From: a phage | Direction: 5' to 3' (one strand) | DNA: 64,000 nucleotides | Assembly: GCA_024875585.1 (NCBI GenBank) | Contig: GCA_024875585.1_4107.1 | Part shown: piece by piece, positions 18,763 to 58,665 of the stretch | Layout: each line of letters starts with the position of its first letter | Position numbering within the stretch: position 1 is the stretch's first letter | Translations under genes and position numbers: made by a program | Notes under the pieces: generated by a model | Seen by the model: the letters and a program-made list of their open reading frames with translations, nothing else | Database searches by the model: none | What the model was told of the DNA's origin: nothing

Positions 18763-18992
18763 TACTGACAGAACTAGAAATGTATCATAGATTTAATAAG
18801 TACTATCATTTACTTAAGCCTATACAGAGGATTAAATGTCCATTTGAAGAGAAACAGGTATTAATTTATGAGCATAAGTTATTTGTATCATTAGGTACGA
18901 ATGAACAAGAGTATTATTTGAAGTTGTACTTAATTACTTTAATTGAATTGATTAATCACAAAACACAGAAAGCTAAGAAATCTAAAAAATGA
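18756..18992 (+). CDS. Family A small paralog
   Basis: SLGTNEQEYYL. Confidence 0.6.
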   Translation: MLVLTELEMYHRFNKYYHLLKPIQRIKCPFEEKQVLIYEHKLFVSLGTNEQEYYLKLYLITLIELINHKTQKAKKSKK

Positions 18993-19327
18993 AAACTAAT
19001 ATTCAACTCAAGGTATACATATCTTATGAATCTATATACATCAAATGCAGTCTATGTAAAGATGTAATGGATTATAAAGGTAAGCCATTCACAATTACTT
19101 ACAGTCTAACAGGAGGCTTTTATATATCTTTTGTTGATTACGAAAATAAAATATACAAGCACATTGATATTAAAGATTTAAGTACCTTGTCAGATGAGGA
19201 ATACTTTCAAGAATCATTAGTATGGGATTTAGAGTTTCCTATGACATTAGTACACAAAATGATAGTACTAATGAAAGAAACTAAACCTGAGCCGAGTGGT
19301 TATGAAGAATTCATTATTGAGTATTAA
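18989..19327 (+). CDS. Family B paralog (E-E-x-F-Q-x-S-L-V-x-D motif protein)
   Basis: motif EEYFQESLVWD; first Family B member, embedded in Family A array. Confidence 0.6.
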   Translation: MKTNIQLKVYISYESIYIKCSLCKDVMDYKGKPFTITYSLTGGFYISFVDYENKIYKHIDIKDLSTLSDEEYFQESLVWDLEFPMTLVHKMIVLMKETKPEPSGYEEFIIEY

Positions 19328-19339
19328 GAGTACTGATAT

Positions 19340-19555
19340 ATGAAAAGATTATCATACAAAGATTACAGTAAACTTATCAGTACTTTACAACCAGAAATTA
19401 GAAGAATTAATTATCTTCCTATACCCAACGAAGAACGTGTAGTACTGAAAAATGAGTTAATATTAAAACGCACAGTAGGTACTAACTATCAAGATAATAG
19501 TGTTTGCGATTTAATTAGAGGGTTAATGATCACAATAAAGGCCAAGTGCTATTGA
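19340..19555 (+). CDS. Family A small paralog
   Basis: TVGTNYQDNSV. Confidence 0.6.
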   Translation: MKRLSYKDYSKLISTLQPEIRRINYLPIPNEERVVLKNELILKRTVGTNYQDNSVCDLIRGLMITIKAKCY

Positions 19556-19561
19556 CAGTAC

Positions 19562-19590
19562 TTGACGGAGCTTTTCATTACTGATATAGT
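19562..19590 (+). promoter_or_regulatory. sigma70-type promoter (TTGACG-N17-TATAGT)
   Basis: TTGACG 19562-19567, TATAGT 19585-19590, TG at -15/-14. Confidence 0.5.
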
Positions 19591-19619
19591 ACACTAACGT
19601 TAATCATAGGGTAGAAATT

Positions 19620-19865
19620 ATGTTAAAATTTTTAAATTTCCTTATCGTCTTGTGTATTGTTCTTGGGATTGCACCGTTTGTACTGGTGTATATGGATTCA
19701 GATGAAATGCAAAAGATGAATTGCACAAAGACGGGACAGAGTAGAGAAGAGACGATTCTTATGCCTGTTACTGTTATTGTTAATAATATGCCCATTACAA
19801 ACATGGTCCCTACCCTAACGACAACGTACCAGTACTCTTGTACAGACGGGGAGAGGTGGAGATGA
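19620..19865 (+). CDS. small membrane protein (81 aa)
   Basis: N-terminal hydrophobic helix FLNFLIVLCIVLGIAPFVLVY. Confidence 0.5.
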   Translation: MLKFLNFLIVLCIVLGIAPFVLVYMDSDEMQKMNCTKTGQSREETILMPVTVIVNNMPITNMVPTLTTTYQYSCTDGERWR

Positions 19866-20182
19866 AATTTAATATAGCAAAAACATCGAATGTATGTATA
19901 TTTGGTTATGCAGAAGAGTTAGGTGATATTGACATTCTTTTGTACAAAAAGGATGGTGTTATGCATTTCAAGTACCAGGATGAAGAGGCAGACAATTATC
20001 TTTTGCCTAATTTAGTACAAATGCAGGAAGAGGAATTATTCCAGTACAGCTTAGTATATGACATTGATATTTGCACGATGCCAGTACTAATTAATATTCA
20101 AAAAGTGATGCTCGATGTGTTTGATAGGCTAATACAAGGCACACAAGGAAGAACCATATATGTCAATGTACAAGACAATTAA
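19862..20182 (+). CDS. Family B paralog
   Basis: EELFQYSLVYD; start moved to ATG after SD GAGGTGGAG (track 19838). Confidence 0.6.
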   Translation: MKFNIAKTSNVCIFGYAEELGDIDILLYKKDGVMHFKYQDEEADNYLLPNLVQMQEEELFQYSLVYDIDICTMPVLINIQKVMLDVFDRLIQGTQGRTIYVNVQDN

Positions 20183-20375
20183 TCAAGAATGGAAGAATCA
20201 AAAGTACAGAGAATTCAATAGGAATTTTACAAAAGACGAATTGAATATAAAAACAACAGAATTTGATATGTTTATTTTTCTCGGAACACGTTCTCAGGAG
20301 CAATTTGTTCATTATTATATAAATTCGTTGCGAGCGGAGATAGTATGCAAAACAAAGGGTATTATAAAAAGGTAA
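20160..20375 (+). CDS. Family A small paralog
   Basis: FLGTRSQEQFV. Confidence 0.55.
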   Translation: MSMYKTINQEWKNQKYREFNRNFTKDELNIKTTEFDMFIFLGTRSQEQFVHYYINSLRAEIVCKTKGIIKR

Positions 20376-20611
20376 ACCAACATTTGTACGCTACAAAGTA
20401 CAGGGATTTTTGTTTAAAGGGTGGTGATGAAGATTTTTCTTTGCGATTATCAGAATTTAATCTGTTATTTTATCTTGGTACATCGGAACAAGAAGAAATG
20501 GCACAGAAATTTCTCAATCACCTTGTACAAAAAATTAATATGCAAATTTTGATGCTTAAGTTACAGGATGAGATAAATGAATATGAACCCAACAATAGTA
20601 CAGGATCTTAA
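20345..20611 (+). CDS. Family A small paralog
   Basis: YLGTSEQEEMA. Confidence 0.55.
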   Translation: MQNKGYYKKVNQHLYATKYRDFCLKGGDEDFSLRLSEFNLLFYLGTSEQEEMAQKFLNHLVQKINMQILMLKLQDEINEYEPNNSTGS

Positions 20612-21120: not shown

Positions 21121-21324
21121 GTGCAAAATAGTAATACGATAACATTAAATGCATTACAGGATTCATTATTAGATAGTATTAAGATGTATTACAATATACA
21201 TTTGAGGGGTGGCATTGATGATTATAATTATTATTTGAGTTTAATTGTAATTGAGCACCTTTCAGTACAGGACAGGATTTTACATCCTACAAATCCTAGG
21301 TATCCATCGATAGGTAAATTATGA
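21121..21324 (+). CDS. hypothetical protein (67 aa)
   Basis: track ORF with non-ATG start; weak. Confidence 0.35.
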   Translation: MQNSNTITLNALQDSLLDSIKMYYNIHLRGGIDDYNYYLSLIVIEHLSVQDRILHPTNPRYPSIGKL

Positions 21325-21878
21325 ATGAGATAGAGTTATTAGCACACAAGATAAGTACAATAATGCTTATCCTCAATAACAACCATCCTATATCGCAGAT
21401 AGATGGAATCCTGAGTCAGAGGACAGGTGGTAGTTTATATTTGTCCCTAAACGCAAATATCGCAAGGAAATACATTGACATTGGTGATGTTGATGCTGAA
21501 ATCGAATGTGATACAACTGGAATTGTTGATGTAGGTGCATTAATCAGTTCAAATCCTGTATCAGTATCCCCGTTGACCAAAGGTGTTAGTACAGGATTCG
21601 AAGGATATTTGTGGTATAATGCTAATGATAATTATTTTATATATCAGCATTCTAATACAAATTATGATGAAGATAAATTTGAGTTCATTGACCCTTATGA
21701 TGAAGCTGGAGTATTTCAACAATCATTAATCACAAAACCACATCAAATGATGTATCTAATGTTATTCAGTACAATGAATTTGAATCCATTAATTAATGGT
21801 TTAAAGTTTTATATTCAATTGAATTTGGTTCATGTAGTTTATGATTTATTAATGCAAGGATATAGTTATGAAGTATAA
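21321..21878 (+). CDS. Family B paralog
   Basis: AGVFQQSLITK; ATGA overlap. Confidence 0.6.
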   Translation: MNEIELLAHKISTIMLILNNNHPISQIDGILSQRTGGSLYLSLNANIARKYIDIGDVDAEIECDTTGIVDVGALISSNPVSVSPLTKGVSTGFEGYLWYNANDNYFIYQHSNTNYDEDKFEFIDPYDEAGVFQQSLITKPHQMMYLMLFSTMNLNPLINGLKFYIQLNLVHVVYDLLMQGYSYEV

Positions 21879-22504: not shown

Positions 22505-22980
22505 AGTTTAGTTTAGATGCTGCTTTTAAATTTGTACACAAGATAGAAACAATATATCGTACATTATGTGCAATACGATTAGTAACATCTGAACTTGATG
22601 TTGGTAAAAGGTATCAGGTATGGAATAACACATTTCTAGACAAAGAGCGTTGTTCAACTGGGTTTAATATTTTATCATTTAATCCAAGTAATTGTTACCC
22701 AGAGAAGCATGAGCGTTATCCGAATGATGACATGTGGTTTGAGTACAAAGAAGATGGTGATATGTCGTTCATTGAAGTTCCTGATGATTTTAATGCACAA
22801 GATTTAACAGAAGAATGGTGGTTCCAGCAGAATTTAGTCCACGATGATATTGATTTATTTTTTTATGTAGTATTTAAAATGCTTTATCACAACAAGATAG
22901 TACAAGATAGTGTATTTTTTTCATGTCTATATATTGATGATTTGTACAATGAAATTCAAATCAACATGCCTGTATCGTAA
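22483..22980 (+). CDS. Family B paralog
   Basis: EWWFQQNLVHD. Confidence 0.6.
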   Translation: MQYMSDLEFSLDAAFKFVHKIETIYRTLCAIRLVTSELDVGKRYQVWNNTFLDKERCSTGFNILSFNPSNCYPEKHERYPNDDMWFEYKEDGDMSFIEVPDDFNAQDLTEEWWFQQNLVHDDIDLFFYVVFKMLYHNKIVQDSVFFSCLYIDDLYNEIQINMPVS

Positions 22981-23005
22981 GATATGGGCTTTTTTTGTTT
23001 TGGTA

Positions 23006-23034
23006 TTGACATAGAAGTACAAAACTGTTATCAT
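23006..23034 (+). promoter_or_regulatory. sigma70-type promoter (TTGACA-N17-TATCAT)
   Basis: internal promoter in Family B array; strong SD AAAGGAGG follows. Confidence 0.55.
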
Positions 23035-24737: not shown

Positions 24738-24738
24738 T

Positions 24739-24969
24739 ATGCTTACTGATGATATTAAACAAAAATACCGTAAGTTTGATTGGTTCACCGACAGTTTCCA
24801 GCTTGAATTACTGTATTTGAATATAAGTGAGACATTATGTGCAGAAACACAAGATGAATTTGATGACAGAGTTCTTAACATAGTAATGCTTTCTTGCTTT
24901 AAACACTTTGGTTATTTTTCGAACAGGATTAAGGTACAAAATGCATCAACACAAGCATCATTCATATGA
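24739..24969 (+). CDS. hypothetical protein (76 aa)
   Basis: ORF immediately after previous stop. Confidence 0.45.
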   Translation: MLTDDIKQKYRKFDWFTDSFQLELLYLNISETLCAETQDEFDDRVLNIVMLSCFKHFGYFSNRIKVQNASTQASFI

Positions 24970-25456
24970 TTTTGCAATTAACATTATGAAGTTCATTCGA
25001 GCGTTGGAGGATGGGAAGCTTAGTCATAAGTACAGGAAAGAGGGTAACAATTGGTTCAGAAATGATTCCGAGTTCAGGAGTCATAACATCGTGTATAGCA
25101 ATCAGTACAGTGCTAATTACCTACAAGATGTAGTGATGTGTTTTGAATATGTATTGCAGTTCAGGGGTACAATCCAGAATGAATTAATGGATCACATGTA
25201 CATCCGATACCTTCCAATGCATAAAGATGAAAATGCATTATTAGGTTCAATATACCAACGAGTAAGGGAAATTGAGTGCAGGGATATATTAGATACAGAA
25301 GAATCGTATTTCCAGCAATCTCTTATTACTGCACCTGATTCATTACAGGCACATAATTTGTTTAATACATTACGTCAGAACATCAGTACAGACATATTTT
25401 TGTCATTATTGGATTATGATACATTTGTCAAAGATTTAGAGGAAATAGGTTTATGA
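24908..25456 (+). CDS. Family B paralog
   Basis: ESYFQQSLITA. Confidence 0.6.
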   Translation: MVIFRTGLRYKMHQHKHHSYDFAINIMKFIRALEDGKLSHKYRKEGNNWFRNDSEFRSHNIVYSNQYSANYLQDVVMCFEYVLQFRGTIQNELMDHMYIRYLPMHKDENALLGSIYQRVREIECRDILDTEESYFQQSLITAPDSLQAHNLFNTLRQNISTDIFLSLLDYDTFVKDLEEIGL

Positions 25457-27001: not shown

Positions 27002-27730
27002 ATGAAATATAAAGAATTTTGTATAAAAACATGGATGTACACTGGTGAATTGCTTACGTGCTGTAATTTGTACAAGCGTGATGTAAACTTCACAAAGGAC
27101 AAAGTTATCAAGTATGAAAATTCTCAATTTTATTTGATGGATTTTAGTACTGGGTTTCATGGTAAATCAACCGAGATGCTGGATTATACATTAATGGATG
27201 AGGCGGCACTATTTCAAGAATCATTAGTATTTGATAAGAAGTACATCTGTACATTAGAAGAGATGATTGAAATTCAGAATAAAATTAAATGTGTTCACAG
27301 GGAATGTATTGATAAATGGTGTAAAACGGGTGAAACTGATTTTAGTAATCATTTTAATCTAGGAGAAAGAGTGATGGAATTTGATTTTTTAATATCAGTG
27401 CATACATTCAAGAATACACATCAGTACTTTTGTAATTTAAACAAAGGTGATTTAATGCACAGTGCGAATGAGTATATTCATTTTATGGATGGTAAATTCA
27501 CATTCATTGATTACAGTTCATTACAATATCCACATCAAGATATGCCGGACTATACAATAATGAATGAGGCTGAACTATTTCAAGCTTCATTAGTATTTGA
27601 CAAGAAGTACATCTGTACATTTGAAGAAGTAATTACTATACAAAATGAAATGAAGGAGTATGCATCTTTGAATAAACCCAATGAAGGTATTAATCAAGAA
27701 TACAAATTCAATATAGAGATTCCAAAATGA
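27002..27730 (+). CDS. Family B paralog with internal tandem duplication (two motif modules)
   Basis: MDEAALFQESLVFDKKYICTLEE and MNEAELFQASLVFDKKYICTFEE in one ORF. Confidence 0.6.
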   Translation: MKYKEFCIKTWMYTGELLTCCNLYKRDVNFTKDKVIKYENSQFYLMDFSTGFHGKSTEMLDYTLMDEAALFQESLVFDKKYICTLEEMIEIQNKIKCVHRECIDKWCKTGETDFSNHFNLGERVMEFDFLISVHTFKNTHQYFCNLNKGDLMHSANEYIHFMDGKFTFIDYSSLQYPHQDMPDYTIMNEAELFQASLVFDKKYICTFEEVITIQNEMKEYASLNKPNEGINQEYKFNIEIPK

Positions 27731-28086
27731 CATATGATTACTCTATGTACTATTATAAGTTACCTAAAGGATGGGACTTGTGCTGTAATCTTATTAAGGG
27801 AGACTCGGAACATGAGTTGAATTTATATATGCACTACAAAGATTCTTGTTTTAAATTTATTCATGTATCACATGATGACTATGACTATGAATCTGAGAGT
27901 CTTATAGATTATACAGTACTGGACGATGGCGAACTATTTCAGGAAGCATTAGTGTTTGATAAGAATAAGTACTCCTGTACATTTGAAGAAATGGTTTCTT
28001 TGCAAACTGAAATGAAGAGATTTGAAAAAGAAAACGTATTTAATCCATCCCCATCAAGAACGAATAATTATTATTTCAATATATGA
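27727..28086 (+). CDS. Family B paralog
   Basis: GELFQEALVFDKN; ATGA overlap. Confidence 0.6.
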   Translation: MTYDYSMYYYKLPKGWDLCCNLIKGDSEHELNLYMHYKDSCFKFIHVSHDDYDYESESLIDYTVLDDGELFQEALVFDKNKYSCTFEEMVSLQTEMKRFEKENVFNPSPSRTNNYYFNI

Positions 28087-28095: not shown

Positions 28096-28578
28096 ATGAC
28101 ATTACAGAGTTCATTGGAAAAAGCAAAGAAGATCCATGAGTACATGAATATGGCAAAAGAAGGTTCAGTTTACGGTGTTTTCAAAGACACAAGTACTCAA
28201 TATTTTGTGCCGGATAACCTCCTTTATAATGACTACTCAGATACAGAAACGTGCGTACTGGATACCGACCCTAAAGATTATGAATGTTTCATTGATATGC
28301 ATTATGAGTACATGGTCTATATTAATGATGCAGATATTACCATCTACAGTACTGACTGCAATTCCGATGATATTATAATTCCTAGTGAAGTTCTGAATGG
28401 CCCGTGGGATAGTGAAGAGTATTACTTCCAACAAAGTACTGTATACAATGAAGAAGTACTTGATGTTATTATAATTATGTGGTACTTTAAAAATATTGGT
28501 TCTGATAACTTCTATTTCGATTACAGATACGTAAAGAAAGCTATAGATAACGATATTAATAAACCACACGGGGGTTGA
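28096..28578 (+). CDS. Family B paralog, subfamily B1
   Basis: EYYFQQSTVYNEE...IIMWYFKNI; N-terminus MTLQSSLEKAKKIHEY. Confidence 0.65.
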   Translation: MTLQSSLEKAKKIHEYMNMAKEGSVYGVFKDTSTQYFVPDNLLYNDYSDTETCVLDTDPKDYECFIDMHYEYMVYINDADITIYSTDCNSDDIIIPSEVLNGPWDSEEYYFQQSTVYNEEVLDVIIIMWYFKNIGSDNFYFDYRYVKKAIDNDINKPHGG

Positions 28579-28579
28579 A

Positions 28580-29050
28580 ATGAGTTTAGAAAGAGCATTA
28601 GAGATTGCGAAGTTAATTGATTTATGCAGCAAAGAAATTGTATCAAATTGTCTCAATGGATATCTATTCAAGGAAGGTAAATCATATTGTCGAATGAGAT
28701 ACGATGACAGTAGTGAGTATATTCACATGTATGAAGAAGACCTTGATGATTCCGAAATAACACTGAATGGGTGTGATGTTAATCTGGAAGATAATTACAT
28801 TTACTTCAGTCGTGGTGCTGATATTTTAATACAAGAAACATCAATTCAACATGTGAATCCAGATGTATATCTTCCATATTCAGTACTGGATAATGACTGG
28901 GGAAGTGAAGAGGTTTACTTTCAGCATAATACTATCTACGATGAAGATGTGCTTGACAAGCTTGTCATTCTGTGGTACTTTAAGAACACTGATACTCCCA
29001 ACTTCTATATGGATTTGGATCTACTACGAGTTATAAAAGAGGATATATGA
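28580..29050 (+). CDS. Family B paralog, subfamily B1
   Basis: EVYFQHNTIYDED...ILWYFKNT. Confidence 0.65.
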   Translation: MSLERALEIAKLIDLCSKEIVSNCLNGYLFKEGKSYCRMRYDDSSEYIHMYEEDLDDSEITLNGCDVNLEDNYIYFSRGADILIQETSIQHVNPDVYLPYSVLDNDWGSEEVYFQHNTIYDEDVLDKLVILWYFKNTDTPNFYMDLDLLRVIKEDI

Positions 29051-29490
29051 GTTTAGCAAGTGCACTTAAACTGGCACACAAAATACATCACTTCCACGAT
29101 AACATAAAAAGTGGGTTCTATGGTGATAAAGTAAGTGCATTGGGTAATGAGTATTATCTATCAGGTATAAAGACATACTCTGATGATATTTTACTTATGG
29201 GACATGATAAAGACAATACTATACAGTACTCTTCATGTAGTCAATATACTAGTTTTATGGTATATATTCCAGGTACTAAGATTACGTTTGACACATCAAA
29301 TTCACCTGTTGACTTCGGGGTACTTGATGGCCCGTGGGGTACTGAAGAGTATTACTTCCAACAGAGTCTTATTTTCAACCAAGAAATTCTTGATTCCTTG
29401 GTTGTTTTGTGGTACTTTAAGGAATTGAATTTTGAACCATTCTTTCTTGACTGGGGAGCATGTGAGTATTTAAGTACAGGGGATTTGTAA
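29047..29490 (+). CDS. Family B paralog, subfamily B1
   Basis: EYYFQQSLIFNQE...VLWYFKEL. Confidence 0.65.
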   Translation: MSLASALKLAHKIHHFHDNIKSGFYGDKVSALGNEYYLSGIKTYSDDILLMGHDKDNTIQYSSCSQYTSFMVYIPGTKITFDTSNSPVDFGVLDGPWGTEEYYFQQSLIFNQEILDSLVVLWYFKELNFEPFFLDWGACEYLSTGDL

Positions 29491-29978
29491 TGTCGTTACA
29501 AAGTGCATTAAAAGAAGCAAAGAAAATCCATGAGTACATGATTATGGTACAAGAAGGTTCAGTCCCAGGTGTGTATAAAACATCTGATACTGAATTTTTT
29601 GTAAAAGACCGTGACGATTATGATGAGTCAGAGATATGTGCAGAAACGTTAGTACTGCACACTGATACTGGTGATAGTGATAACTGTGAATATCATATGT
29701 ACAATCAGTACATTAGTTATTGCCGTAATGAAGATATTACCATCTACAACACAGATATTGATGCTGATGACACTATCATTCCGTATTCAGTACTGGAAGG
29801 TCCGTGGGATAGTGAAGGGTATTACTTTCAGAATAGTACTATCTACAATGAAGAAGAACTGGATGTTATTGTGATTATGTGGTACTTTAAAAGTATTGAC
29901 TCCAGTAGTTTCTATTTTGATTATGAATATGTAGAGAATACAGTAGGAGAAGGTAATGTCATTACAAAGTGCTCTTGA
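29490..29978 (+). CDS. Family B paralog, subfamily B1
   Basis: GYYFQNSTIYNEE...IMWYFKSI. Confidence 0.65.
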   Translation: MSLQSALKEAKKIHEYMIMVQEGSVPGVYKTSDTEFFVKDRDDYDESEICAETLVLHTDTGDSDNCEYHMYNQYISYCRNEDITIYNTDIDADDTIIPYSVLEGPWDSEGYYFQNSTIYNEEELDVIVIMWYFKSIDSSSFYFDYEYVENTVGEGNVITKCS

Positions 29979-30402
29979 AAAAGCAAAAGAAATACATGGA
30001 TACTTTGAAGATATAAAGGCAGGAAAGTTCAAAGAAGTATACAAAGCCGAGAACGGTAACTACTACAAAGATGAAATATATAATAATTCCGTTGGTGTAA
30101 GGGTTATTCTTGAGTTGAATTCCAATAGTCCTGTGTCGTTTTCTGAATACAATAGAGATGCAGAATTCATTAGTTATGTTGAAAATGGTAGCATTCGTTT
30201 TATTAATAGACAAAAACCATTAATTTTGAATTATGAAGTTCTGGATGGTCAGTGGGATAATGAAGAGTATTACTTCCAAAACAGTACTGTATACGACGAT
30301 GAAGTACTTGAAGCATTAGTTATTATGTGGTACTTCAAGAGTATTAACTGTCCTCGATTTTATTTGGATTTCGAAGAACTTGGTAAAGATCCAGAGGTAT
30401 AG
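29956..30402 (+). CDS. Family B paralog, subfamily B1
   Basis: EYYFQNSTVYDDE...IMWYFKSI. Confidence 0.65.
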   Translation: MSLQSALEKAKEIHGYFEDIKAGKFKEVYKAENGNYYKDEIYNNSVGVRVILELNSNSPVSFSEYNRDAEFISYVENGSIRFINRQKPLILNYEVLDGQWDNEEYYFQNSTVYDDEVLEALVIMWYFKSINCPRFYLDFEELGKDPEV

Positions 30403-30403
30403 A

Positions 30404-30718
30404 ATGAAAAACTTATTCAGTGTTCAGTACGTTCCAGGTGAAATTAGTTTATTGTATCTCTTTGACCATGATAATTCATTATTACTAGTAGTAAAGAAAT
30501 GTCAAGCTAGTTCGTTTGTTGAATACATTCACGATAATGAATATATACCTGATTTTTTAGAGTGCGATTATTACGATGATCATGAATCATTTATTTTTCA
30601 GGAATCGCTAGTATGGGACAAATCGATTAACTTCTTTACGTTAATTGAATTACAAAAGCAAGTGAAGTATCATTGGGATTATTTAATTACACAGGATTAC
30701 ATTGAGATAGAAATATAA
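30404..30718 (+). CDS. Family B paralog
   Basis: SFIFQESLVWD; start moved to ATG after SD GAGGT (track 30380). Confidence 0.55.
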   Translation: MKNLFSVQYVPGEISLLYLFDHDNSLLLVVKKCQASSFVEYIHDNEYIPDFLECDYYDDHESFIFQESLVWDKSINFFTLIELQKQVKYHWDYLITQDYIEIEI

Positions 30719-30960
30719 TGACTAAAAATGAATTTGATTCACTTTGTACTGTTTATAATTCATTAACAGAAATACCTAACTTTATTAGTTATATTTCAGC
30801 TTTAAATCACATTATGCATAGTTTTGAACAATCGTTTGAAGAGAAATATGCTGGAAGAAAAGTTCTATGTCATATGCCAATGTACTTAGGAGATGGTGAG
30901 CCTTACACTACAAGTACTACATGTGAAATAAAAAATATAATATATTATTGGGTACTATAG
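30718..30960 (+). CDS. hypothetical protein (80 aa)
   Basis: ATGA-type overlap; no family motif. Confidence 0.45.
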   Translation: MTKNEFDSLCTVYNSLTEIPNFISYISALNHIMHSFEQSFEEKYAGRKVLCHMPMYLGDGEPYTTSTTCEIKNIIYYWVL

Positions 30961-31021
30961 AATTCACAGTATCCAATGGCGGTAGTTATATGTACTTTAG
31001 AGATGGAGTGGTTGAATTATT

Positions 31022-31471
31022 ATGAGTTACGAAAGTGCAATCAAGAAAGCAAATGATATTCTACGCGTCGTTCAATTCTTCAAAGAAAATCCTGAATACG
31101 TAGATGATAAAAACCAAGAGCACGATGAGAGATTGAGACGAAAAATTATCTCTTTATTTGACACTAATAAAGATAATTGGAGTCTAATTGAGTTAGCATA
31201 CGATTATATTTCATTGAACCGAAATGATGATGTAGTTAAGATAGAAAGGCATGAGTCAGAAGAATCTTTTAGAATTTCAGATATTTTATCCCTGAGTACT
31301 GAAGAAGGGTACTTCCAGGGTAGCACTCTTTATAATGAAGAAACACTTGACAATCTATGCACATTCAGTGTAATATATCAGAAATCTGTACTAGATATAT
31401 TTTATCTTGACACTGCTGAACTGCATACCCTAACCAATTTTGTTACTACCGAAGAGGCTACATTCGAGTGA
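31022..31471 (+). CDS. Family B paralog (B1-like)
   Basis: EGYFQGSTLYNEE; N-terminus MSYESAIKKAND. Confidence 0.6.
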   Translation: MSYESAIKKANDILRVVQFFKENPEYVDDKNQEHDERLRRKIISLFDTNKDNWSLIELAYDYISLNRNDDVVKIERHESEESFRISDILSLSTEEGYFQGSTLYNEETLDNLCTFSVIYQKSVLDIFYLDTAELHTLTNFVTTEEATFE

Positions 31472-32004
31472 TGAAAGTTAACATTAATGACTTTGATGCA
31501 TTACAAGATTTATCAAAAAAGATTCGCACCATCGTACCAGTACTTAAAAAATGCAGTACTGGTTTAATCGATCCTAGTTCTGTTGTCAATGAGAAGTACA
31601 ATTTTCATCGTGTATTACAGGGGACAGGTGCATTTCAGAAGTGTGAGGTACGTGAGAAACATGTAATTGATACATCGTTGTTTTCTATTGGTGCACCTGT
31701 GTCAAACAATACTATTTTCCTGGATGCCGCTGGAAATATTCAACAATTAACATTTAAGAAAAGGAAAAAGAATAATAACATTGGTGTGTACGAGATGAAG
31801 TGGGGACAGCCAGAGTTGATGCGTGACATTCACATTCCTAAGTACAATTTCAATGCATTTGAAGAACAGTGTTTTCAACTTTCTTGTACTGACCCTGACT
31901 ATGCTATCATTCAATTCTATATGGAATTGCAGATTGCATTTAATAGTAATTTGTATATTAACTTATTGGCAATGAACATAGATGAAGTATTCAAAAACAT
32001 TTAA
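31471..32004 (+). CDS. Family B paralog (divergent)
   Basis: EEQCFQLSCTD; start at ATG overlapping previous stop. Confidence 0.5.
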   Translation: MKVNINDFDALQDLSKKIRTIVPVLKKCSTGLIDPSSVVNEKYNFHRVLQGTGAFQKCEVREKHVIDTSLFSIGAPVSNNTIFLDAAGNIQQLTFKKRKKNNNIGVYEMKWGQPELMRDIHIPKYNFNAFEEQCFQLSCTDPDYAIIQFYMELQIAFNSNLYINLLAMNIDEVFKNI

Positions 32005-49872: not shown

Positions 49873-49902
49873 GACAAAATAGAAGTTAATGATATAATGT
49901 GA

Positions 49903-49931
49903 GGTGACAGTATATACTGTCACCTTTTTTT
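49903..49931 (+). terminator. rho-independent terminator
   Basis: GGTGACAGTATATACTGTCACC then TTTTTTT; preceded by TGATATAAT box. Confidence 0.7.
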
Positions 49932-50500
49932 AATCCTGAAAGGTTCCTATAAGGAAATGATTAAAAGCCTAATCCACTCGAAAATGTAGAGGGTAGATGA
50001 GTAGTCCTTTCAGTACGAACAGCAGATGAAACCCGTTAGATGATGGCATAGTTTGAACCACTCACGGCAATGCGGCTGTATAAAGAACTCCAATAGGATA
50101 AAGAGAGTTCCTAGATAGACATATAAGGATCGCACCTTACCAATTATCTAAGGGAGATTTCATAAGAAATATGCGGTCGGAATTATACAATATAGTTGCG
50201 TCCAAATTTTGTGAAATCAAATACAAGTACTGGTCATATGGTATTTGTATTATGTGTCGGGATGTTTAAGACCGACGACCGTTGCTACAAGAACCGCGAT
50301 AGAGAGAAACAGAGCAACCCGCTTTCGTCTCGTAAGAGAATTCGTGATATGAACTATGTGAAGGCCACCAGCGTCAAACTTTTTTGTTCTTTCCCCTGCG
50401 GGGGGGGATGAAATATGCTCAAGCAAACCTCGTCAATATTAATTAAAAGACTTTATAATACTTGTAGAATTGTACATGCACCGCATGGAGAATTCTACTG
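49932..50500 (+). ncRNA. candidate structured non-coding RNA / ORF-free GC-richer region
   Basis: ~570 bp with no RBS-preceded ORF, visibly higher GC than flanks, several local hairpins; identity unknown. Confidence 0.3.
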
Positions 50501-51113: not shown

Positions 51114-51635
51114 ATGTCGAAGAAGGATACTTCGAATAAGCACTCAGTTCATTTCAGTACTGGAAAAGATAACTGGACAACCCCAAAAGATTTTTTTGAA
51201 GATTTAGATGAGTTATGGGGATTTACACTTGATGCTGCTTGTGTAGATGAGACTGCATTGTGTGATAATTTTTTCACTCCAGAAGATGATTCACTGTCAC
51301 AGGATTGGGGAAATAATATAGTTTGGTTGAATCCACCATATAGTGACTTAAAAACATGGTTATCTAAAGCTGTAGATGCATATAATAACGGAGCAACTGT
51401 AGTTATTCTTGTACCCTCAAGAACCGATACAATTGCTTTTCAGGATTATGCTGCTAAAATATGTGATTGTATTTGTTTTATTAAGGGAAGATTGCGATTT
51501 GGTATACCAGAAGAACCCGATAAGAAAACTGATTCAGCACCATTTCCTTCGTGTCTGATAGTTCTGGATAAGTACTTAACCACTGCTAAAATCAATTGTC
51601 TTAAATCTCTCGGATTGGTGATGAAGAATTTATGA
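51114..51635 (+). CDS. dam: DNA N6-adenine methyltransferase (phage Dam family)
   Basis: WTTPKDFF...FTLDAAC...VWLNPPYS: catalytic NPPY motif and upstream blocks typical of the small phage Dam family. Confidence 0.8.
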   Translation: MSKKDTSNKHSVHFSTGKDNWTTPKDFFEDLDELWGFTLDAACVDETALCDNFFTPEDDSLSQDWGNNIVWLNPPYSDLKTWLSKAVDAYNNGATVVILVPSRTDTIAFQDYAAKICDCICFIKGRLRFGIPEEPDKKTDSAPFPSCLIVLDKYLTTAKINCLKSLGLVMKNL

Positions 51636-52165
51636 AAGAAACATGTATATTATCATTTATGAGATGTAACCCAGTCCACAATGGACATGGTTTAGTTTTT
51701 GAAAAGGCCAAAACATTACAAGAACAGTACAATGCTGATTTAAAAATTTATCTAAGCACTAGTACTGACAATATAAAAAACCCACTACCACCTGAACTAA
51801 AAATGTATTATACAGAGGGATTCTATCCTTCAGTGCAAGAGAACATCTACACAGAGGACAATCTATTTGATATAATGAGAGAACTGGATGGAAAGTACTT
51901 AGATGTTCTCTTCATATGTGGTTCTGACCGTATTGATTCTTTTCAGAAAACCCTTGACACTTACAATGGGAAGTTGTATAATTTTTGTAATATAAAAGTA
52001 ATTCAAGCAGGTATTGACCGCCAATCAAGTCGATATAGCTCAACACAAATGCGTAAGTTTGCCAAAAATGAAGATTTTGATAGTTTTCGTGAGTTTTTGC
52101 CTGGAAATGACGAGAACTTAAAAATTCAATTATTTGAAGATGTTATAAAATACATGAGGAAATAA
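51632..52165 (+). CDS. nucleotidyltransferase, NMN/NaMN adenylyltransferase-like
   Basis: N-terminal HNGH (HxGH) and C-terminal SSTQMR (SxTxxR) motifs of cytidylyltransferase-fold enzymes; ATGA overlap with dam. Confidence 0.55.
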   Translation: MKETCILSFMRCNPVHNGHGLVFEKAKTLQEQYNADLKIYLSTSTDNIKNPLPPELKMYYTEGFYPSVQENIYTEDNLFDIMRELDGKYLDVLFICGSDRIDSFQKTLDTYNGKLYNFCNIKVIQAGIDRQSSRYSSTQMRKFAKNEDFDSFREFLPGNDENLKIQLFEDVIKYMRK

Positions 52166-53374: not shown

Positions 53375-53650
53375 ATGAATTATAAATTTCTACAATATAC
53401 ATACACAATATTATTTGATTTACATCACAATGGACGATATATCAACACAATACGAGAAAACACATTTACTCATATGTTATGGATTGATTACTTAGAAACG
53501 ATTCGTGCATATTTTGTTAATACTGAGATAATCATTCGTGGTAAAAAACAGAAGATTCAACATGTTAATAGTTATGGTGGTAAATTAACTCTAACATTTA
53601 CCGATAATAATACTAATGAAATATGTTGTATCGAGTTGGTGAACATATGA
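53375..53650 (+). CDS. Family C small protein
   Basis: N-terminal FLQYTYTILFDL, C-terminal GGKLTLTFTD; SD AAGGGGAAAT. Confidence 0.6.
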   Translation: MNYKFLQYTYTILFDLHHNGRYINTIRENTFTHMLWIDYLETIRAYFVNTEIIIRGKKQKIQHVNSYGGKLTLTFTDNNTNEICCIELVNI

Positions 53651-53913
53651 ATTATAAAGATTTCCAATTAACATATAAGATTATTCGCAATCTAGCACAC
53701 AGCAATAATAGCCCTAGTCTAGAAGACACATGCACAGAAATGATCCATACGATTCGTGCAAAGATTGAAGAAAATTTCAGTACTGTTATTATTAATGATG
53801 ACCATGCAGAATTTTCTGATATAATCATTAGACGTGATGGTAAAGTTGAGGTTCAGTACTACACTGATTTTGGATTTACAAGTGTACCGTTGGAGATATT
53901 CCCTTGGGATTAA
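53647..53913 (+). CDS. Family C small protein
   Basis: MNYKDFQLTYKII; start at ATGA overlap (track 53623). Confidence 0.55.
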   Translation: MNYKDFQLTYKIIRNLAHSNNSPSLEDTCTEMIHTIRAKIEENFSTVIINDDHAEFSDIIIRRDGKVEVQYYTDFGFTSVPLEIFPWD

Positions 53914-54215
53914 ATTTAAATGATATACAATTCACTTATAAGGTACTATATGATTTGTATGATGCATACCTTGTTAGTAACAAAATAGGTTCACATAACC
54001 CAACCAAAGAACAATCATTTATTGATTTATATATTGAGTACTTAGATTCTATTGAAAACTATCTCAAAAAGAATTACAGTACTTTTATCGATGGAAATGA
54101 TACATTCGATTTCTATGGTGTGCAATCATATGATGGTATAATCCATGTTCAATTTCAGGAAAGAACCGATAGGGAATTTATCGAAATTAAAGTTGTGAAG
54201 TTGGTGAATTTATAA
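53904..54215 (+). CDS. Family C small protein
   Basis: LNDIQFTYKVLYDLY; non-ATG (TTG) start, uncertain. Confidence 0.45.
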   Translation: MGLNLNDIQFTYKVLYDLYDAYLVSNKIGSHNPTKEQSFIDLYIEYLDSIENYLKKNYSTFIDGNDTFDFYGVQSYDGIIHVQFQERTDREFIEIKVVKLVNL

Positions 54216-54225
54216 GAGGTTACAT

Positions 54226-54537
54226 ATGTTATTAAATGATATACAATTTACATACAAATTTTTGTATATCCAATTCGCAACGGTTGATGCTGGTGAATAT
54301 ATCTACAGTGAAGTTTATCGTTCGATATGGATAAAGTTTTTAGATGAATTACATGAATATTACCATGATTTGCGTATAGTTCGTAATAATAAAATATACA
54401 AATTCCGCGATATTGTTAGTCATAGCGGTAAGCTACGATTGGAATTAAGTACTGATAGTGATGTTGATTGGATTGGTGTAAATTTACTGGAGTTGGAGAA
54501 TGAAAAGCAACTTAAAGGAAATACAAGTATTTTATAA
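54226..54537 (+). CDS. Family C small protein
   Basis: MLLNDIQFTYKFLY. Confidence 0.6.
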   Translation: MLLNDIQFTYKFLYIQFATVDAGEYIYSEVYRSIWIKFLDELHEYYHDLRIVRNNKIYKFRDIVSHSGKLRLELSTDSDVDWIGVNLLELENEKQLKGNTSIL

Positions 54538-54784
54538 ATTCTTATACTTGTCATATGTTAAAGATGAGTACTATGAAAGTGTGTATTATTTTTTATGGCA
54601 ACATTACCGTACTATAGTAAGAGATTTATATCTAGGAAAATCTATCATATACAATGGTGAAAAATGTACATGTACGGATGTAGTTAGTTTTAATGGTTCT
54701 TTAACACTGTGTTTCAGATGCGATAATAATAGTGGGTCATTTTCATTAAACGTATATCAGTTAGAAGGAATAAATTTTGAATAA
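54500..54784 (+). CDS. Family C small protein
   Basis: LKEIQVFYKFLY; SD GGAGA. Confidence 0.55.
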   Translation: MKSNLKEIQVFYKFLYLSYVKDEYYESVYYFLWQHYRTIVRDLYLGKSIIYNGEKCTCTDVVSFNGSLTLCFRCDNNSGSFSLNVYQLEGINFE

Positions 54785-54977
54785 GTGTCCATATTGTAAC
54801 AGTACTCAATTAGCTCGTTTCCGTTTAGATTCAGACTGGGCAACTGGTGCTGGGGATTTCTTCCCTATTAATGATGATGCGGAATACACCGAAGAACAAC
54901 ACAAAGATTTTGATAAATCATGGCGACCGGACATTGAGTGCATTTATTGCCTTAATTGTGAGCGTGTCCATGACTAA
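54777..54977 (+). CDS. small zinc-ribbon protein (66 aa)
   Basis: CPYC-x44-CIYCLNC; TTG start, uncertain. Confidence 0.4.
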   Translation: MNKCPYCNSTQLARFRLDSDWATGAGDFFPINDDAEYTEEQHKDFDKSWRPDIECIYCLNCERVHD

Positions 54978-55233
54978 AGCTGAACTAATAGTTCATACAT
55001 ATAAAATGATATCAAGTACTGAGTTATCATATAGTGAAGATAATCCGGTACTGGATTATTTTGTGGAATTATTGAAAGACCATTATATTGGTAAATCACT
55101 GAATCTTAATAATATTAATTTCACTGTAAAGGATGTAGCACCAGGTAAAAACGTACTAATAGTATGTGTTACTTCATCTGATAACCCAGTATACCCAATA
55201 TCAATAACTTTTGAGATATTAGGGGATGTATGA
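54970..55233 (+). CDS. Family C-like small protein (87 aa)
   Basis: start moved to ATG 54970 (track 54847); MTKAELIVHTYKMI. Confidence 0.5.
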   Translation: MTKAELIVHTYKMISSTELSYSEDNPVLDYFVELLKDHYIGKSLNLNNINFTVKDVAPGKNVLIVCVTSSDNPVYPISITFEILGDV

Positions 55234-55520
55234 ATATCATTTTAATACAAAAAACATATACTCTACTAATGAAAGAATATGCTAATACTTATGATGAAAG
55301 GTGTAGTGCAATTCATAATATGTATGAATTTATTACTCAAGAGTACAGGGATTATATATATGCTGCGTTAGTGGGTAGATATTTCAGTACTAGAAAATAC
55401 CCAAAACTTCAAATAGTTGATGTTTCTTTTTATTTCAATGGTCATATTACTATTCATAGTTTAGACCAAGATTCAACAACGTACTTAAACTTTTCATTTG
55501 ATGAGGTAACATTTTTATGA
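55230..55520 (+). CDS. Family C small protein
   Basis: LIQKTYTLLMKEY; ATGA overlap. Confidence 0.55.
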   Translation: MNIILIQKTYTLLMKEYANTYDERCSAIHNMYEFITQEYRDYIYAALVGRYFSTRKYPKLQIVDVSFYFNGHITIHSLDQDSTTYLNFSFDEVTFL

Positions 55521-55699
55521 GAACAGTATTTTTTATCTGGAGTCTTTTTTCATTGGCAGTACTGACAGTTTCAGGTGCTTATTCATTTTTAACAATGAAC
55601 ACATGGTATGTTAATTTACTATTCCCAATTGTTGGTGTTGGTTTAGGATTTAGTTTACATAGTGTATGTAAGGATTACAATGACAAATACAACAAATGA
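55517..55699 (+). CDS. small membrane protein (60 aa, two predicted TM helices)
   Basis: FFIWSLFSLAVLTVSG and LLFPIVGVGLGFSL hydrophobic runs. Confidence 0.5.
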   Translation: MRTVFFIWSLFSLAVLTVSGAYSFLTMNTWYVNLLFPIVGVGLGFSLHSVCKDYNDKYNK

Positions 55700-55964
55700 A
55701 GTTCTTATTGCTGAAACAATGAAGATGATTTACTTTATTACTACGGCACAGGATTTGTCTTATCCAGTGAAATCGTTACTTAGGTCAATGTATCTTGATA
55801 TTGTAAAAGAATATTATAAATCTAAACACAGAAGCATTATTAGTGTTTATCGTGATTATGAAAGGATTCGTATTTTATTCTGGAACAAGAATCGAGTACG
55901 TTCTGAATGTGATCTAGTAGATTTTAAATTAGAGAATCTTTATTGCTATAAACAGGAACAATAG
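55680..55964 (+). CDS. hypothetical protein (94 aa)
   Basis: start moved to ATG after SD AAGGA (track 55662). Confidence 0.5.
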   Translation: MTNTTNEVLIAETMKMIYFITTAQDLSYPVKSLLRSMYLDIVKEYYKSKHRSIISVYRDYERIRILFWNKNRVRSECDLVDFKLENLYCYKQEQ

Positions 55965-56751: not shown

Positions 56752-56761
56752 AGGAATCGTC

Positions 56762-57046
56762 ATGGATTTATACTCACATGCTTGGACATTCGAACAGTAT
56801 ATTTCATTATATAATGAAATTTACAATACTGATATGTCATACTGCAATTATTTTCGCAATATGATCGATGAATATTCAAAGGAATTTAATAGTTTATACC
56901 TTTATGTTAATAAAGAAGTTACACATAAGACTATGAATAAAACAGGTACAATTGATGAAATTTCATTTGATTCCTATGGTGTGTATTTCTATATTACATT
57001 TTCTGATGATACTTTAGGTATACACACTTATAGTGAGTTAAAATAA
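56762..57046 (+). CDS. Family C-like small protein
   Basis: C-terminal DSYGVYFYITFSDD. Confidence 0.55.
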   Translation: MDLYSHAWTFEQYISLYNEIYNTDMSYCNYFRNMIDEYSKEFNSLYLYVNKEVTHKTMNKTGTIDEISFDSYGVYFYITFSDDTLGIHTYSELK

Positions 57047-57053
57047 AAATATA

Positions 57054-57077
57054 GGCCAGCGTTTGCTGGTCTTTTTT
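57054..57077 (+). terminator. rho-independent terminator
   Basis: GGCCAGC-GTTT-GCTGGTC then TTTTTT. Confidence 0.7.
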
Positions 57078-57090
57078 CGCAGGTACAAAG

Positions 57091-57393
57091 ATGATCAGTA
57101 TAGATTTAATTGATAGTACTATAAAAATGTTGGCTGATTTAGTGAGACAATCCAATGAAACTTTATACCAATCAATGTATAAAATGTTTGACCGATACAT
57201 CAAGGATTGTAACATATCATTATATGGACTTGCTGTTGATATAGACGATTACTATGGTATTAATACTTCATATGAAACAGGAATTTTAATTGGTATTAAT
57301 ATAAAGATGGGATATTATCCTTATTACTGTATAGGATTACCAGATAATACGTTGGTAGAATATCCAGCCAGTACTATTAAATTAAGAGGATAA
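57091..57393 (+). CDS. hypothetical protein (100 aa)
   Basis: ORF after terminator. Confidence 0.55.
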   Translation: MISIDLIDSTIKMLADLVRQSNETLYQSMYKMFDRYIKDCNISLYGLAVDIDDYYGINTSYETGILIGINIKMGYYPYYCIGLPDNTLVEYPASTIKLRG

Positions 57394-57400
57394 AACTAAA

Positions 57401-57979
57401 ATGAATGTATTAGAATTAAGTACGAAGCTGATTAGTATGCGTAACGAGTGGTACGATTGGTTTTATAATGGTACTGATATGGATTTTTCAAAATATCCAT
57501 TTATGGAATCAGGATGTGATTCAAGATACCGCTGGTTGAGCAAAAGTGGTTCTGGTTTATTCATTCGTGTTGATGATAGTGGTCGAGGAATTATAAAAGA
57601 TTTCATTCAAGTTGAAGAACTCGTCTATGATAATTGGGGTGATAACGATCCATACCTTGGAAATATGATTTATGTAAGTGAAAATGATTGCATATTCGTT
57701 ATCCAGCGTCATGGTGATTCTATGTTTTATGTAGCGGACAACAATACACCTGACGGTGCAGCAGCCGATGGACTTATGCCTAAGATTGATATATTGGAAT
57801 TTGGATTACCTGAGCATTTTCAGATTAGTACTTTATACGATATCCCACCACTTGAGTTCTTTGAAGAATTTAAATTATACTACAATGAACTTCAAAAATT
57901 GAGTTCTGAACATCGAATTGAAATAACAGTCAAGTACATAGATGGGACAAAATTAACCGATACGGGGATAGAATTTTGA
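57401..57979 (+). CDS. Family B paralog (distal copy)
   Basis: PEHFQISTLYDIPP. Confidence 0.55.
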   Translation: MNVLELSTKLISMRNEWYDWFYNGTDMDFSKYPFMESGCDSRYRWLSKSGSGLFIRVDDSGRGIIKDFIQVEELVYDNWGDNDPYLGNMIYVSENDCIFVIQRHGDSMFYVADNNTPDGAAADGLMPKIDILEFGLPEHFQISTLYDIPPLEFFEEFKLYYNELQKLSSEHRIEITVKYIDGTKLTDTGIEF

Positions 57980-58665
57980 TTAAAGATTTAGATAGAATTT
58001 TATATGTACTAAGGGGTGTAATTACATTACATCCACACATCAATCGAATTGAAAGTACATTTCAGTTGGAGTCAAGAGAAACTCAATATTCACATATATC
58101 AAATGTAGTTGGCTCACTTAGTACTGAAGACTCGCCTTACGATATTTGTGTATGTGAAGTACAACCAAGTTCGGATCTTGGATTTGCTATTTTTGATAAA
58201 AATCAAAATCTCATTAGTATGTTTCAGTGCAATAATCCTTTTTGGAAAACATGCCTGTATCCAGAGTGGGCTATGCTTGATCCAACCAAGAGCACCATTA
58301 AAGTTTATGACTCTAAAAATGATGAAGTCGTTATTGATTTGGATGAGTCAATGTCCGAGGAAGAACACTTTCAGCTAATGATGATGCGTGCTATGCCTGA
58401 ATACAATGCAATGATTAACACTGTGCAATACATTAAGGATACCATGCCATCATTGCGTACACATGAGTTTTGTCATCCGGTATTGTATGAACATTTAGAT
58501 TTAGATTTCAGTACTATTAAATTTAAAGATAGTGTCATTGAGTATATCCAAGAGGTTACTAAATTCGATTTCATTAGTACAATGAATAATAACCCTGAAA
58601 CAAATTTCAGACGACAATACAATGAATCTTTGTCTAATGGACGTGATACAAGTTGGTGGAAATAA
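57976..58665 (+). CDS. Family B paralog (distal copy)
   Basis: EEHFQLMMMRA; ATGA overlap. Confidence 0.55.
   Translation: MIKDLDRILYVLRGVITLHPHINRIESTFQLESRETQYSHISNVVGSLSTEDSPYDICVCEVQPSSDLGFAIFDKNQNLISMFQCNNPFWKTCLYPEWAMLDPTKSTIKVYDSKNDEVVIDLDESMSEEEHFQLMMMRAMPEYNAMINTVQYIKDTMPSLRTHEFCHPVLYEHLDLDFSTIKFKDSVIEYIQEVTKFDFISTMNNNPETNFRRQYNESLSNGRDTSWWK

Follow-up and report, generated by a model that had tools for sequence, protein, structure and literature searches.

The question raised by the locus described here is what a jumbo phage gains from dozens of adjacent genes for a single protein family. The locus lies in the window, by which we mean the whole 64,000-nucleotide stretch analyzed from contig GCA_024875585.1_4107.1 (GenBank assembly GCA_024875585.1), and the family, here called Family B, was proposed in an initial annotation as about 50 tandem paralogs sharing only a short motif. 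Our data confirmed that Family B is a tandem multigene family, consisting of adjacent same-strand genes with significant mutual homology, and its members are predicted to share one compact fold. The most likely reading, which we favor tentatively, is that the copies are a diversified set of host-takeover or counter-defense binders.

Between positions 27000 and 37000, the window is 98.1% identical to Escherichia phage UE-S1 and 91 to 93% identical to 121Q, PBECO4, phAPEC6, G17, and other Asteriusvirus jumbo coliphages (320 to 386 kb). The RnlA/PseT block downstream matches the same relatives and, less strongly, jumbo phages of Klebsiella, Serratia, Erwinia, Yersinia, and Cronobacter. All long open reading frames (ORFs) of the window lie on the plus strand, at a G+C content of 30 to 34%. 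A loose pattern, FQ.[STNQ][LTMV][LIVM], was found in 37 of 169 plus-strand ORFs and in 0 of 36 minus-strand ORFs, and a hidden Markov model (HMM) seeded on the motif region converged in one round on 38 ORFs with 39 domains, as ORF 27002-27730 contains two. With the HMMER filters off, members scored 32 to 70 bits, whereas the top control scores were 11.3 bits for 3,680 shuffled ORFs, 9.5 bits for non-member plus-strand ORFs, and 8.9 bits for minus-strand ORFs. Since these scores are cleanly bimodal, we consider the family real, and the proposed array of tandem paralogs stands. Secure members run from 18989-19327 to 57401-57979; all but the last of the 38, i.e., 37, fall within 18989-46313, where they fill 66% of the span, and the coding sequence of all members sums to 18.6 kb. 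The ATGA and TAATG overlaps reported earlier were recovered as nine junctions of -4 and five of -1. The members and candidates are listed below, with bits denoting the family HMM score of that ORF.

18989-19327, + strand: Family B, short type, 112 amino acids (aa), SDEEYFQESLVWD; 48.7 bits
19838-20182, + strand: Family B, short type, QEEELFQYSLVYD; likely true start ATG 19862; 48.3 bits, family alignment
21321-21878, + strand: Family B, long type, 185 aa, DEAGVFQQSLITK; 53.2 bits
21868-22170, + strand: Family B, short type, 100 aa, SDEELFQQQLVID; 47.8 bits
22483-22980, + strand: Family B, long type, 165 aa, TEEWWFQQNLVHD; 43.5 bits
23061-23594, + strand: Family B, long type, 177 aa, GEDVYFQYSTVHC; 38.4 bits
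23591-24136, + strand: Family B, long type, 181 aa, QEEEYFQMQLVHA; 58.7 bits
24114-24737, + strand: Family B, long type, 207 aa, VDAFMFQLSLVQD; 32.0 bits, hhalign probability 97%
24908-25456, + strand: Family B, long type, 182 aa, TEESYFQQSLITA; 43.6 bits
25819-26367, + strand: Family B, long type, 182 aa, SDESLFQYSTMYD; 56.7 bits
27002-27730, + strand: Family B, two fused short-type domains in a 242-aa ORF, EAALFQESLVFD and EAELFQASLVFD; HMM domain E values 5e-17 and 2e-17
27727-28086, + strand: Family B, short type, 119 aa, DDGELFQEALVFD; 51.0 bits
28096-28578, + strand: Family B, long type, 160 aa, SEEYYFQQSTVYN, modeled protein; 69.6 bits
28580-29050, + strand: Family B, long type, 156 aa, SEEVYFQHNTIYD; 57.6 bits
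29047-29490, + strand: Family B, long type, 147 aa, TEEYYFQQSLIFN; 55.1 bits
29490-29978, + strand: Family B, long type, 162 aa, SEGYYFQNSTIYN; 62.6 bits
29956-30402, + strand: Family B, long type, 148 aa, NEEYYFQNSTVYD; 63.8 bits
30380-30718, + strand: Family B, short type, HESFIFQESLVWD; likely true start ATG 30401; 34.5 bits
31022-31471, + strand: Family B, long type, 149 aa, TEEGYFQGSTLYN; 52.8 bits
32356-32919, + strand: Family B, long type, 187 aa, TEENIFQNSVLHD; 43.0 bits
33518-33880, + strand: Family B, short type, 120 aa, QEDELFQESLVWD, modeled protein; 60.3 bits
33804-34247, + strand: Family B, short/intermediate type, GEEEMFQYSTVFN, start uncertain; 52.2 bits
34226-34567, + strand: Family B, short type, 113 aa, DEGELFQESLVFN; 44.6 bits
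34527-35111, + strand: Family B, long type, NQEYYFQLSLLFP, start uncertain; 53.1 bits
35171-35647, + strand: Family B, long type, 158 aa, TEEEFFQYSTVYP; 58.4 bits
35644-36147, + strand: Family B, long type, 167 aa, SEEMYFQESLIHD; 57.0 bits
36104-36466, + strand: Family B, short type, 120 aa, SEEELFQESTIST; 51.3 bits
36450-36863, + strand: Family B, short type, 137 aa, TPDELFQYSLVLP; 42.7 bits
36851-37345, + strand: Family B, long type, 164 aa, SEESYFQNSLIYT, sole basic member (isoelectric point [pI], 9.1); 59.1 bits
37329-37871, + strand: probable diverged Family B, 180 aa, eroded motif; not significant in the window, reciprocal-best Turkey5 ortholog T5_27382_27927 HMM-significant
37868-38431, + strand: Family B, long type, 187 aa, LESVMFQLSLIHD; 41.5 bits
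38424-38942, + strand: Family B, long type, 172 aa, TDEAIFQLRTICD; 40.5 bits
39594-40178, + strand: Family B, long type, 194 aa, REAYIFQRSLLDN; 43.5 bits
40165-40743, + strand: Family B, long type, 192 aa, VEEELFQMSTVIP; 50.4 bits
41168-41677, + strand: probable diverged Family B, 169 aa, EEVEFQNNTLSP; weak in the window (5.7 bits), Turkey5 ortholog T5_31174_31659 HMM-significant
41661-42242, + strand: Family B, long type, 193 aa, GEEQYFQLSTIHE; 45.9 bits
42304-42855, + strand: Family B, long type, 183 aa, SEEQHFQLSTLHD; 39.8 bits
44039-44452, + strand: conserved non-family gene inside the array, 137 aa, synteny anchor, followed by tblastn
44452-44988, + strand: Family B, long type, 178 aa, TEELLFQYSLILT; 35.2 bits
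45807-46313, + strand: Family B, long type, 168 aa, DPGELFQMSTLYS; 36.9 bits
49018-49872, + strand: probable Family B with a long C-terminal extension, 284 aa, DELMFQLMLTGV near residue 80; not HMM-significant in the window, orthologs keep the motif
57401-57979, + strand: Family B, long type, 192 aa, GLPEHFQISTLYD, beyond the Dam block; 36.9 bits
57976-58665, + strand: possible Family B, 229 aa, EEEHFQLMMMRA; hhalign P = 0.0015 over 69 columns, HMM E value 0.002 to 0.03

About 15 more ORFs of the array carry a degenerate motif at the expected relative position. None of them reached significance with an HMM broadened to cover the window, RaK2, BF, and database homologs or by hhalign against the long-type alignment; 11 of the 15 aligned in hhalign exactly at the motif columns, while controls aligned at random places. 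Four have outside support: 37329, 41168, and 49018 through orthology (BF_0061 and GAP32_066, the orthologs of the last, retain ISDEAMFQLETLSV and SDESMFQLETLCV, respectively) and 57976 through hhalign. Because outside evidence rescues only these four, we count 38 ORFs as secure and about 42 as probable, so that the initial figure of about 50 holds only as an upper bound. Similarly, of the two copies placed beyond the Dam block at 57401-58665, the first is secure and the second only possible.

The motif occupies a fixed place in these proteins, at 50 to 75% of their length with 40 to 80 residues following it, in line with its initial description as lying about two-thirds along. Its phenylalanine and glutamine are invariant in all window alignments, and the FQ pair is present in 127 of 127 database homologs retrieved. 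Across 160 unique family segments from four genera, the logo reads [ST]58% E81% E75% x [Y38/L30] F Q x S91% [T50/L47] [V50/I28/L16] [Y/H/F/W] D48%. Two architectures carry it, a short type of 100 to 147 aa and a long type of 147 to 207 aa with an additional N-terminal helix. The N-terminal parts are highly diverged, as had been claimed, with a pairwise identity of 0.247 against a shuffled background of 0.232. The C-terminal parts are indeed loosely conserved (0.282 against 0.217), but their description as hydrophobic did not hold: the members are acidic and hydrophilic (mean pI of 5.0, mean net charge of -10, negative grand average of hydropathicity, 37 of 38 acidic), and since they are soluble proteins in which the C-terminal segment is modeled to form packed helices and a strand, that segment is not a hydrophobic or membrane element.

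AlphaFold models were built for one short-type and one long-type member on paralog-plus-ortholog alignments. The short-type model (33518-33880; mean predicted local distance difference test score [pLDDT], 83.7; predicted template modeling score [pTM], 0.79) has five strands, a helix at residues 64 to 77 (EDELFQESLVWDNK), a helix at 82 to 98, and a closing strand. In the long-type model (28096-28578; pLDDT, 88.5; pTM, 0.83), the N-terminal part comprises a helix at residues 3 to 22 and six strands, followed by a short helix at 107 to 113 (EEYYFQQ), a turn (STVYN), a helix at 119 to 133, a strand, and a final helix. The two types align with an hhalign probability of 92% through the two strands preceding the motif, and profile alignments reach well past it, over 43 to 149 columns. 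The models thus predict one compact alpha/beta fold common to all members, a five- to six-stranded antiparallel sheet followed by a helix/turn carrying [ST]EEx[YL]FQxS[TL][VI][YHFW]D, a long helix, and a closing strand. From the logo, the serine or threonine and the two glutamates look like the N terminus of a helix. In both models the motif falls in the blocks of highest confidence (pLDDT, 92 to 97), and because it lies inside this shared fold, in its best-predicted part, it is modeled as the conserved keystone of the fold and not as a detachable signal. Two elements of the initial proposal are therefore not supported, namely, that the paralogs share only a short motif and that this is a docking motif. 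A short linear motif would be disordered, exposed, and independent of a fold, whereas here the secondary structure on either side is conserved and can be aligned. The motif holds a homologous position throughout what is one diversified paralog family.

Searches for relatives returned no Pfam match at the curated cutoff (the best, PF24070, scored 15 bits against a cutoff of 24.4), no NCBIfam match, and no match in PDB profile searches better than an E value of 0.27. Foldseek against BFVD found the fold only in uncharacterized proteins of the 121Q, SP27, RaK2, GAP32, Serratia BF, and Yersinia fHe-Yen9 phages. Hence, the initial remark that the motif matches no characterized domain was borne out at the level of both sequence and fold. 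Members fall into many separate PHROGs, all of unknown function (9317, 12674, 13866, 15629, and about 10 singleton-like ones, with E values of 1e-47 to 1e-129); that database leaves them as unlinked groups and does not record the unifying profile, fold, or motif. Word-indexed searches of 5.8 billion proteins gave just 25 and 24 matches, essentially all on contigs of about 350 kb, and scanning 1.84 billion cluster representatives exhaustively with HMMER gave 86 matches at an E value of ≤1e-3, all 49 to 215 aa long with the domain at the same relative position. Family B is specific to Rak2-like jumbo phages.

Our searches of the literature on the family, on transcriptomes, and on functional screens in Asteriusvirus and Rak2-like phages returned only a single sentence by Hua et al. 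2017 along with general mentions of paralogs. That sentence concerns paralogs of 121Q, comes without sequence, motif, fold, or function, and may refer instead to the ~70-aa Family A described below (Hua et al. 2017). The RaK2 and CBB papers mention paralogs generically, and a 2026 review repeats the Hua remark; the motif, fold, cross-genus synteny, absence from virions, and evolutionary rate appear in none of these sources. Like Family B, the jumbo-phage paralog arrays already reported consist of tens of tandem same-strand genes for small proteins and have been read as tandem duplication (PMC7824862, PMC5646251), but Family B differs in fold, having neither a zinc ribbon nor conserved Cys/His. 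Paralog expansion in a giant virus is thus a known kind of feature, of which Family B is an uncharacterized instance with a fold matched to nothing solved.

The array is conserved across at least four Rak2-like genera and has an internal landmark, the non-family gene 44039-44452. By tblastn it has matches in 74 phage records that span every Rak2-like genus, and it is always flanked by family members, with 75% identity to Turkey5 and 40 to 60% to other genera; it is also present in some Vibrio phages of ~130 kb. It has no Pfam, PHROG-function, or PDB sequence match, and the ADP-ribosyltransferase label that GenBank attaches to it in phage ph0011 was set aside, being without such support. Syntenic motif-bearing arrays, which the initial annotation had suggested searching for by profile, surround this anchor in other genera: about 9 long-type genes in Serratia BF (motifs such as ILEEEYFQNSTRIE and YPEEWFFQQLTVQD), about 9 family genes in GAP32, and about 21 to 24 in RaK2 (e.g., TEEGYFQGSLILD), compared with 33 in Turkey5, 38 here, and 41 in phAPEC6. 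The Dam, cytidylyltransferase-like, RnlA, and PseT block found in the window also follows the array downstream in BF, GAP32, and RaK2. The ancestral core is the 3' part of the window array (about 41.6 to 46.3 kb), and most of the rest is an Asteriusvirus expansion. Starting from an ancestral block of roughly 9 to 10 genes around the conserved non-family gene, tandem duplication raised the copy number to about 21 in RaK2 and at least 38 in Asteriusvirus. Recent duplications are seen only in 27002-28086 and 28096-31471; other neighbors are no more alike than distant paralogs.

The main rival to the binder reading starts from this landmark and from the motif. An invariant EE-FQ-S patch might dock all paralogs onto one common partner, either a host hub (sliding clamp, RNA polymerase, or protease) or the embedded non-family gene, while the variable part selects cargo. 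The invariance of F and Q in all 160 segments, with the serine at +3 and the glutamate at -4 each above 80%, keeps this adaptor model alive, as do the constant presence of the embedded gene and the motif being the most constrained segment of the proteins (ratio of nonsynonymous to synonymous substitution rates [dN/dS], 0.16). The Q-x-S-[LT]-[VI]-[aromatic] portion also bears what we take to be a loose resemblance to the bacterial clamp-binding motif QL[SD]LF, although at the crucial hydrophobic position half of the members have T instead of L. Several observations speak against a simple linear motif: the segment is predicted in a packed helix/turn rather than in a disordered tail; F, [TL] at +4, and [VI] at +5 look like core residues, judging from the logo pattern; and the partner candidate lacks Pfam or PDB support for its enzymatic label. 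We therefore regard the adaptor model as unlikely, though it is the alternative that survives best. A combination of the two ideas, to which we give a small chance, would be a binder repertoire on one rigid, previously unseen scaffold, with about 40 different recognition surfaces all docked through the EE-FQ-S patch on a single common partner, again the embedded conserved gene or a host hub. If true, the phage would carry modular targeting machinery that steers a single activity toward dozens of host or defense proteins.

Comparison with close and distant relatives bears on whether the copies are maintained at all. Relative to phAPEC6 (synonymous divergence of about 0.26), 36 of the 38 members have intact 1:1 orthologs, with a pooled dN/dS of 0.24 (median, 0.21; maximum, 0.70) against 0.20 for 81 other genes; the N- and C-terminal segments give 0.28 and 0.24. 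The copies are held by purifying selection between close strains and, on these values for whole genes and segments, are maintained rather than drifting as pseudogenes. The gene-wide diversifying selection for which the initial annotation had proposed to look was not seen at this distance.

Over a longer distance the picture is different. In Turkey5, a more distant coliphage whose syntenic array holds 33 HMM members, only 17 of the 38 find a reciprocal best hit at a coverage of ≥60%; the pairs are mostly collinear, with identities of 21 to 58% (median, 32%), compared with a median of 80% for 46 other genes of the locus (embedded gene, 75%; Dam, 86%; RnlA, 83%). Family A and the degenerate Family B candidates resemble Family B in their divergence from Turkey5. 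Family B thus diverges several-fold faster than its neighbors, and its copies are replaced, a pattern of accelerated evolution and turnover relative to the rest of the locus. Replacement also appears between closely related strains: 27002-27730 is an in-frame fusion of two short-type domains in which the second gene's own ribosome-binding site and ATG persist, whereas phAPEC6 has two separate genes in this slot, the first a different paralog ending in a stop codon.

Fast long-range divergence and copy turnover are what would be expected if the array were largely functionless filler, with tandem duplication having inflated the genome once the capsid had enlarged (the ratchet proposed in Hua et al. 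2017) and the copies drifting. That explanation, to which we assign only a slim chance, is disfavored by the intact phAPEC6 orthologs and by a dN/dS that resembles that of neighboring genes; the motif and fold also persist across four genera, and the reading frames are intact with tightly coupled junctions.

The initial annotation had raised, as a second possibility, that the proteins are packaged in the virion. The phAPEC6 orthologs, gp404c to gp466c, are absent from the 62 virion proteins identified by mass spectrometry, none of which falls between gp347 and gp549, and the RaK2 array members, gp412 to gp438, are absent from 54 virion proteins. Within the sensitivity of those experiments, these absences weaken the packaging reading. 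The signal of T4 internal proteins is N-terminal, is cleaved, and delivers the protein into the head; Family B resembles such proteins in being small and polymorphic with a short conserved segment but differs in that its motif is internal, in a confidently folded helix/turn, and its members are missing from two virion proteomes. The E-E-x-Y-F-Q-[G/S] of 31022-31471 and other long-type members corresponds in every letter to the tobacco etch virus (TEV) protease site E-x-x-Y-x-Q-G/S, almost certainly by coincidence, and S-x-E resembles jumbo-phage prohead protease sites. We rejected the protease-site idea on the grounds of the folded motif and the absence of the proteins from virions; the TEV match matters for tagging and cleaving these proteins. 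That the members are packaged or injected with a shared capsid-targeting or cleavage signal, like T4 internal or inner-body proteins, is thus scarcely credible despite the capsid inner body of phAPEC6 (PMC7247149) and the superficial likeness to protease sites, given the proteomes, the internal folded motif, and the position of the genes among sigma70-type rather than late promoters.

These promoters were sought on the plus strand as sigma70-like sites matching at least 10 of 12 consensus positions. Of 40 strong sites, 10 lie inside 24 intergenic gaps, which account for 4.6% of the sequence (binomial p = 1e-5); the enrichment is confined to these gaps, since a raw scan of the whole region gave 103 sites against 114 expected. 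The gap promoters mostly have a TG-extended -10, and several lie 3' of hairpin/T-run terminators. The following elements illustrate the arrangement.

19562-19590, + strand: sigma70-like promoter, TTGACG-17-TATAGT, TG-extended, intergenic; promoter scan
22968-22989, + strand: terminator-like hairpin then T-run, directly upstream of the next promoter; sequence scan
23006-23034, + strand: sigma70-like promoter, TTGACA-17-TATCAT, TG-extended; promoter scan
35108-35137, + strand: perfect sigma70 consensus, TTGACA-18-TATAAT, TG-extended, in a gap; promoter scan
38975-39003, + strand: sigma70-like promoter, TTTACA-17-TATACT, TG-extended, 3' of a hairpin and T-run; promoter scan

RpoD-like promoters have been predicted in small-ORF early regions of CBB (PMC5259590), and the GAP32 record likewise annotates such promoters. 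Taken together with the gap-enriched sites, their TG-extended -10 elements, and the terminators, this makes early transcription of the array by host sigma70 RNA polymerase likely. No transcriptome for the Rak2-like group was found in the literature.

We therefore return to the reading of Family B as takeover or counter-defense binders. In this model, the array genes would be transcribed early by the host polymerase, and each paralog would act as a stoichiometric, nonenzymatic binder, since only F and Q are invariant in the family alignments and conserved residues of a catalytic type are absent. Through its variable sheet and tails, each paralog would recognize a different host or competitor target, and the copies together would form an arsenal for host takeover or counter-defense, by analogy with multigene families of large eukaryotic DNA viruses. 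The RnlA/PseT RNA-repair pair counters anticodon nucleases in T4, and the Dam and RnlA/PseT neighborhood of the array fits such a role. Several members of the African swine fever virus multigene families (MGF360, MGF505, and MGF110) and of the poxvirus host-range families have demonstrated roles in immune evasion. Family B is like these in consisting of arrays of diverged, nonstructural paralogs on one scaffold, with strain variation in copy number and fast divergence; it is unlike them in having no sequence or fold relationship to them, a bacterial host, and a role that we infer. Thus, the host-takeover or anti-defense function suggested initially gains an indirect fit from promoters, virion absence, acidity, divergence, and neighborhood, but the single docking motif that accompanied it was not supported.

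Several points weigh against this model. Early expression and the binder or counter-defense role are themselves deductions. The rapid divergence over long distances could stem from weak constraint instead of an arms race, and gene-wide positive selection went undetected between close strains. Proteins present in few copies could escape virion proteomics of modest depth. The invariance of F and Q over four genera exceeds what would be expected of a purely structural pair and also fits a shared binding function.

The surrounding region holds further families. Family A comprises at least 31 ORFs, each of about 70 aa and built around an L-G-T-N-Y-Q-E core, at 13121-20611 and 31982-32369 of the window; its proteins have a near-neutral pI, match PHROG 4148 (unknown function), show a median identity of 42% to Turkey5, and are interleaved with Family B at 19340, 20160, 20345, 31982, and 32178. 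A similar [YF]-Q-x-x-x-V pattern made homology between the two families worth considering, but they are unrelated, because the hhalign probability is 0.2%. Family C consists of paralogous ORFs of ~95 aa at 53375-55964, 56762-57393, and 62324-63729, most of them without a reciprocal best hit in Turkey5; the one member tested, 54226-54537, matches PHROG 21004 (unknown function).

The block 3' of the array, at 51114-52165 and 58927-62098, encodes a Dam methylase (PF05869; E value, 7e-32), a cytidylyltransferase-like protein (PHROG 3041, with a weak, below-cutoff similarity to nicotinamide mononucleotide adenylyltransferase), RnlA RNA ligase, and PseT kinase/phosphatase, in an order conserved in RaK2, GAP32, BF, and Turkey5. 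The segment 49873-50500 is a stretch of ~630 nucleotides without a convincing ORF. Its TGATATAAT promoter runs directly into a strong hairpin and T7 terminator (49901-49931); a structured stretch (fold z = -2.5) comes next, and the 71-aa "ORF" at 50196-50411 shows zero synonymous change relative to phAPEC6. The stretch may be a noncoding RNA; tRNA and Rfam scans of the whole window were empty, including at this position.

In conclusion, about 5% of a 358-kb phage genome is given over to one uncharacterized protein family. If the copies are takeover or counter-defense binders, they would constitute one of the largest effector sets that any phage draws from a single family, and their roughly 40 natural variants of one scaffold would be a ready panel for finding host targets or defense inhibitors. 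Whatever the function, the profile, fold, and distribution described here unite dozens of scattered "hypothetical" PHROGs and give the jumbo-phage field a concrete target.

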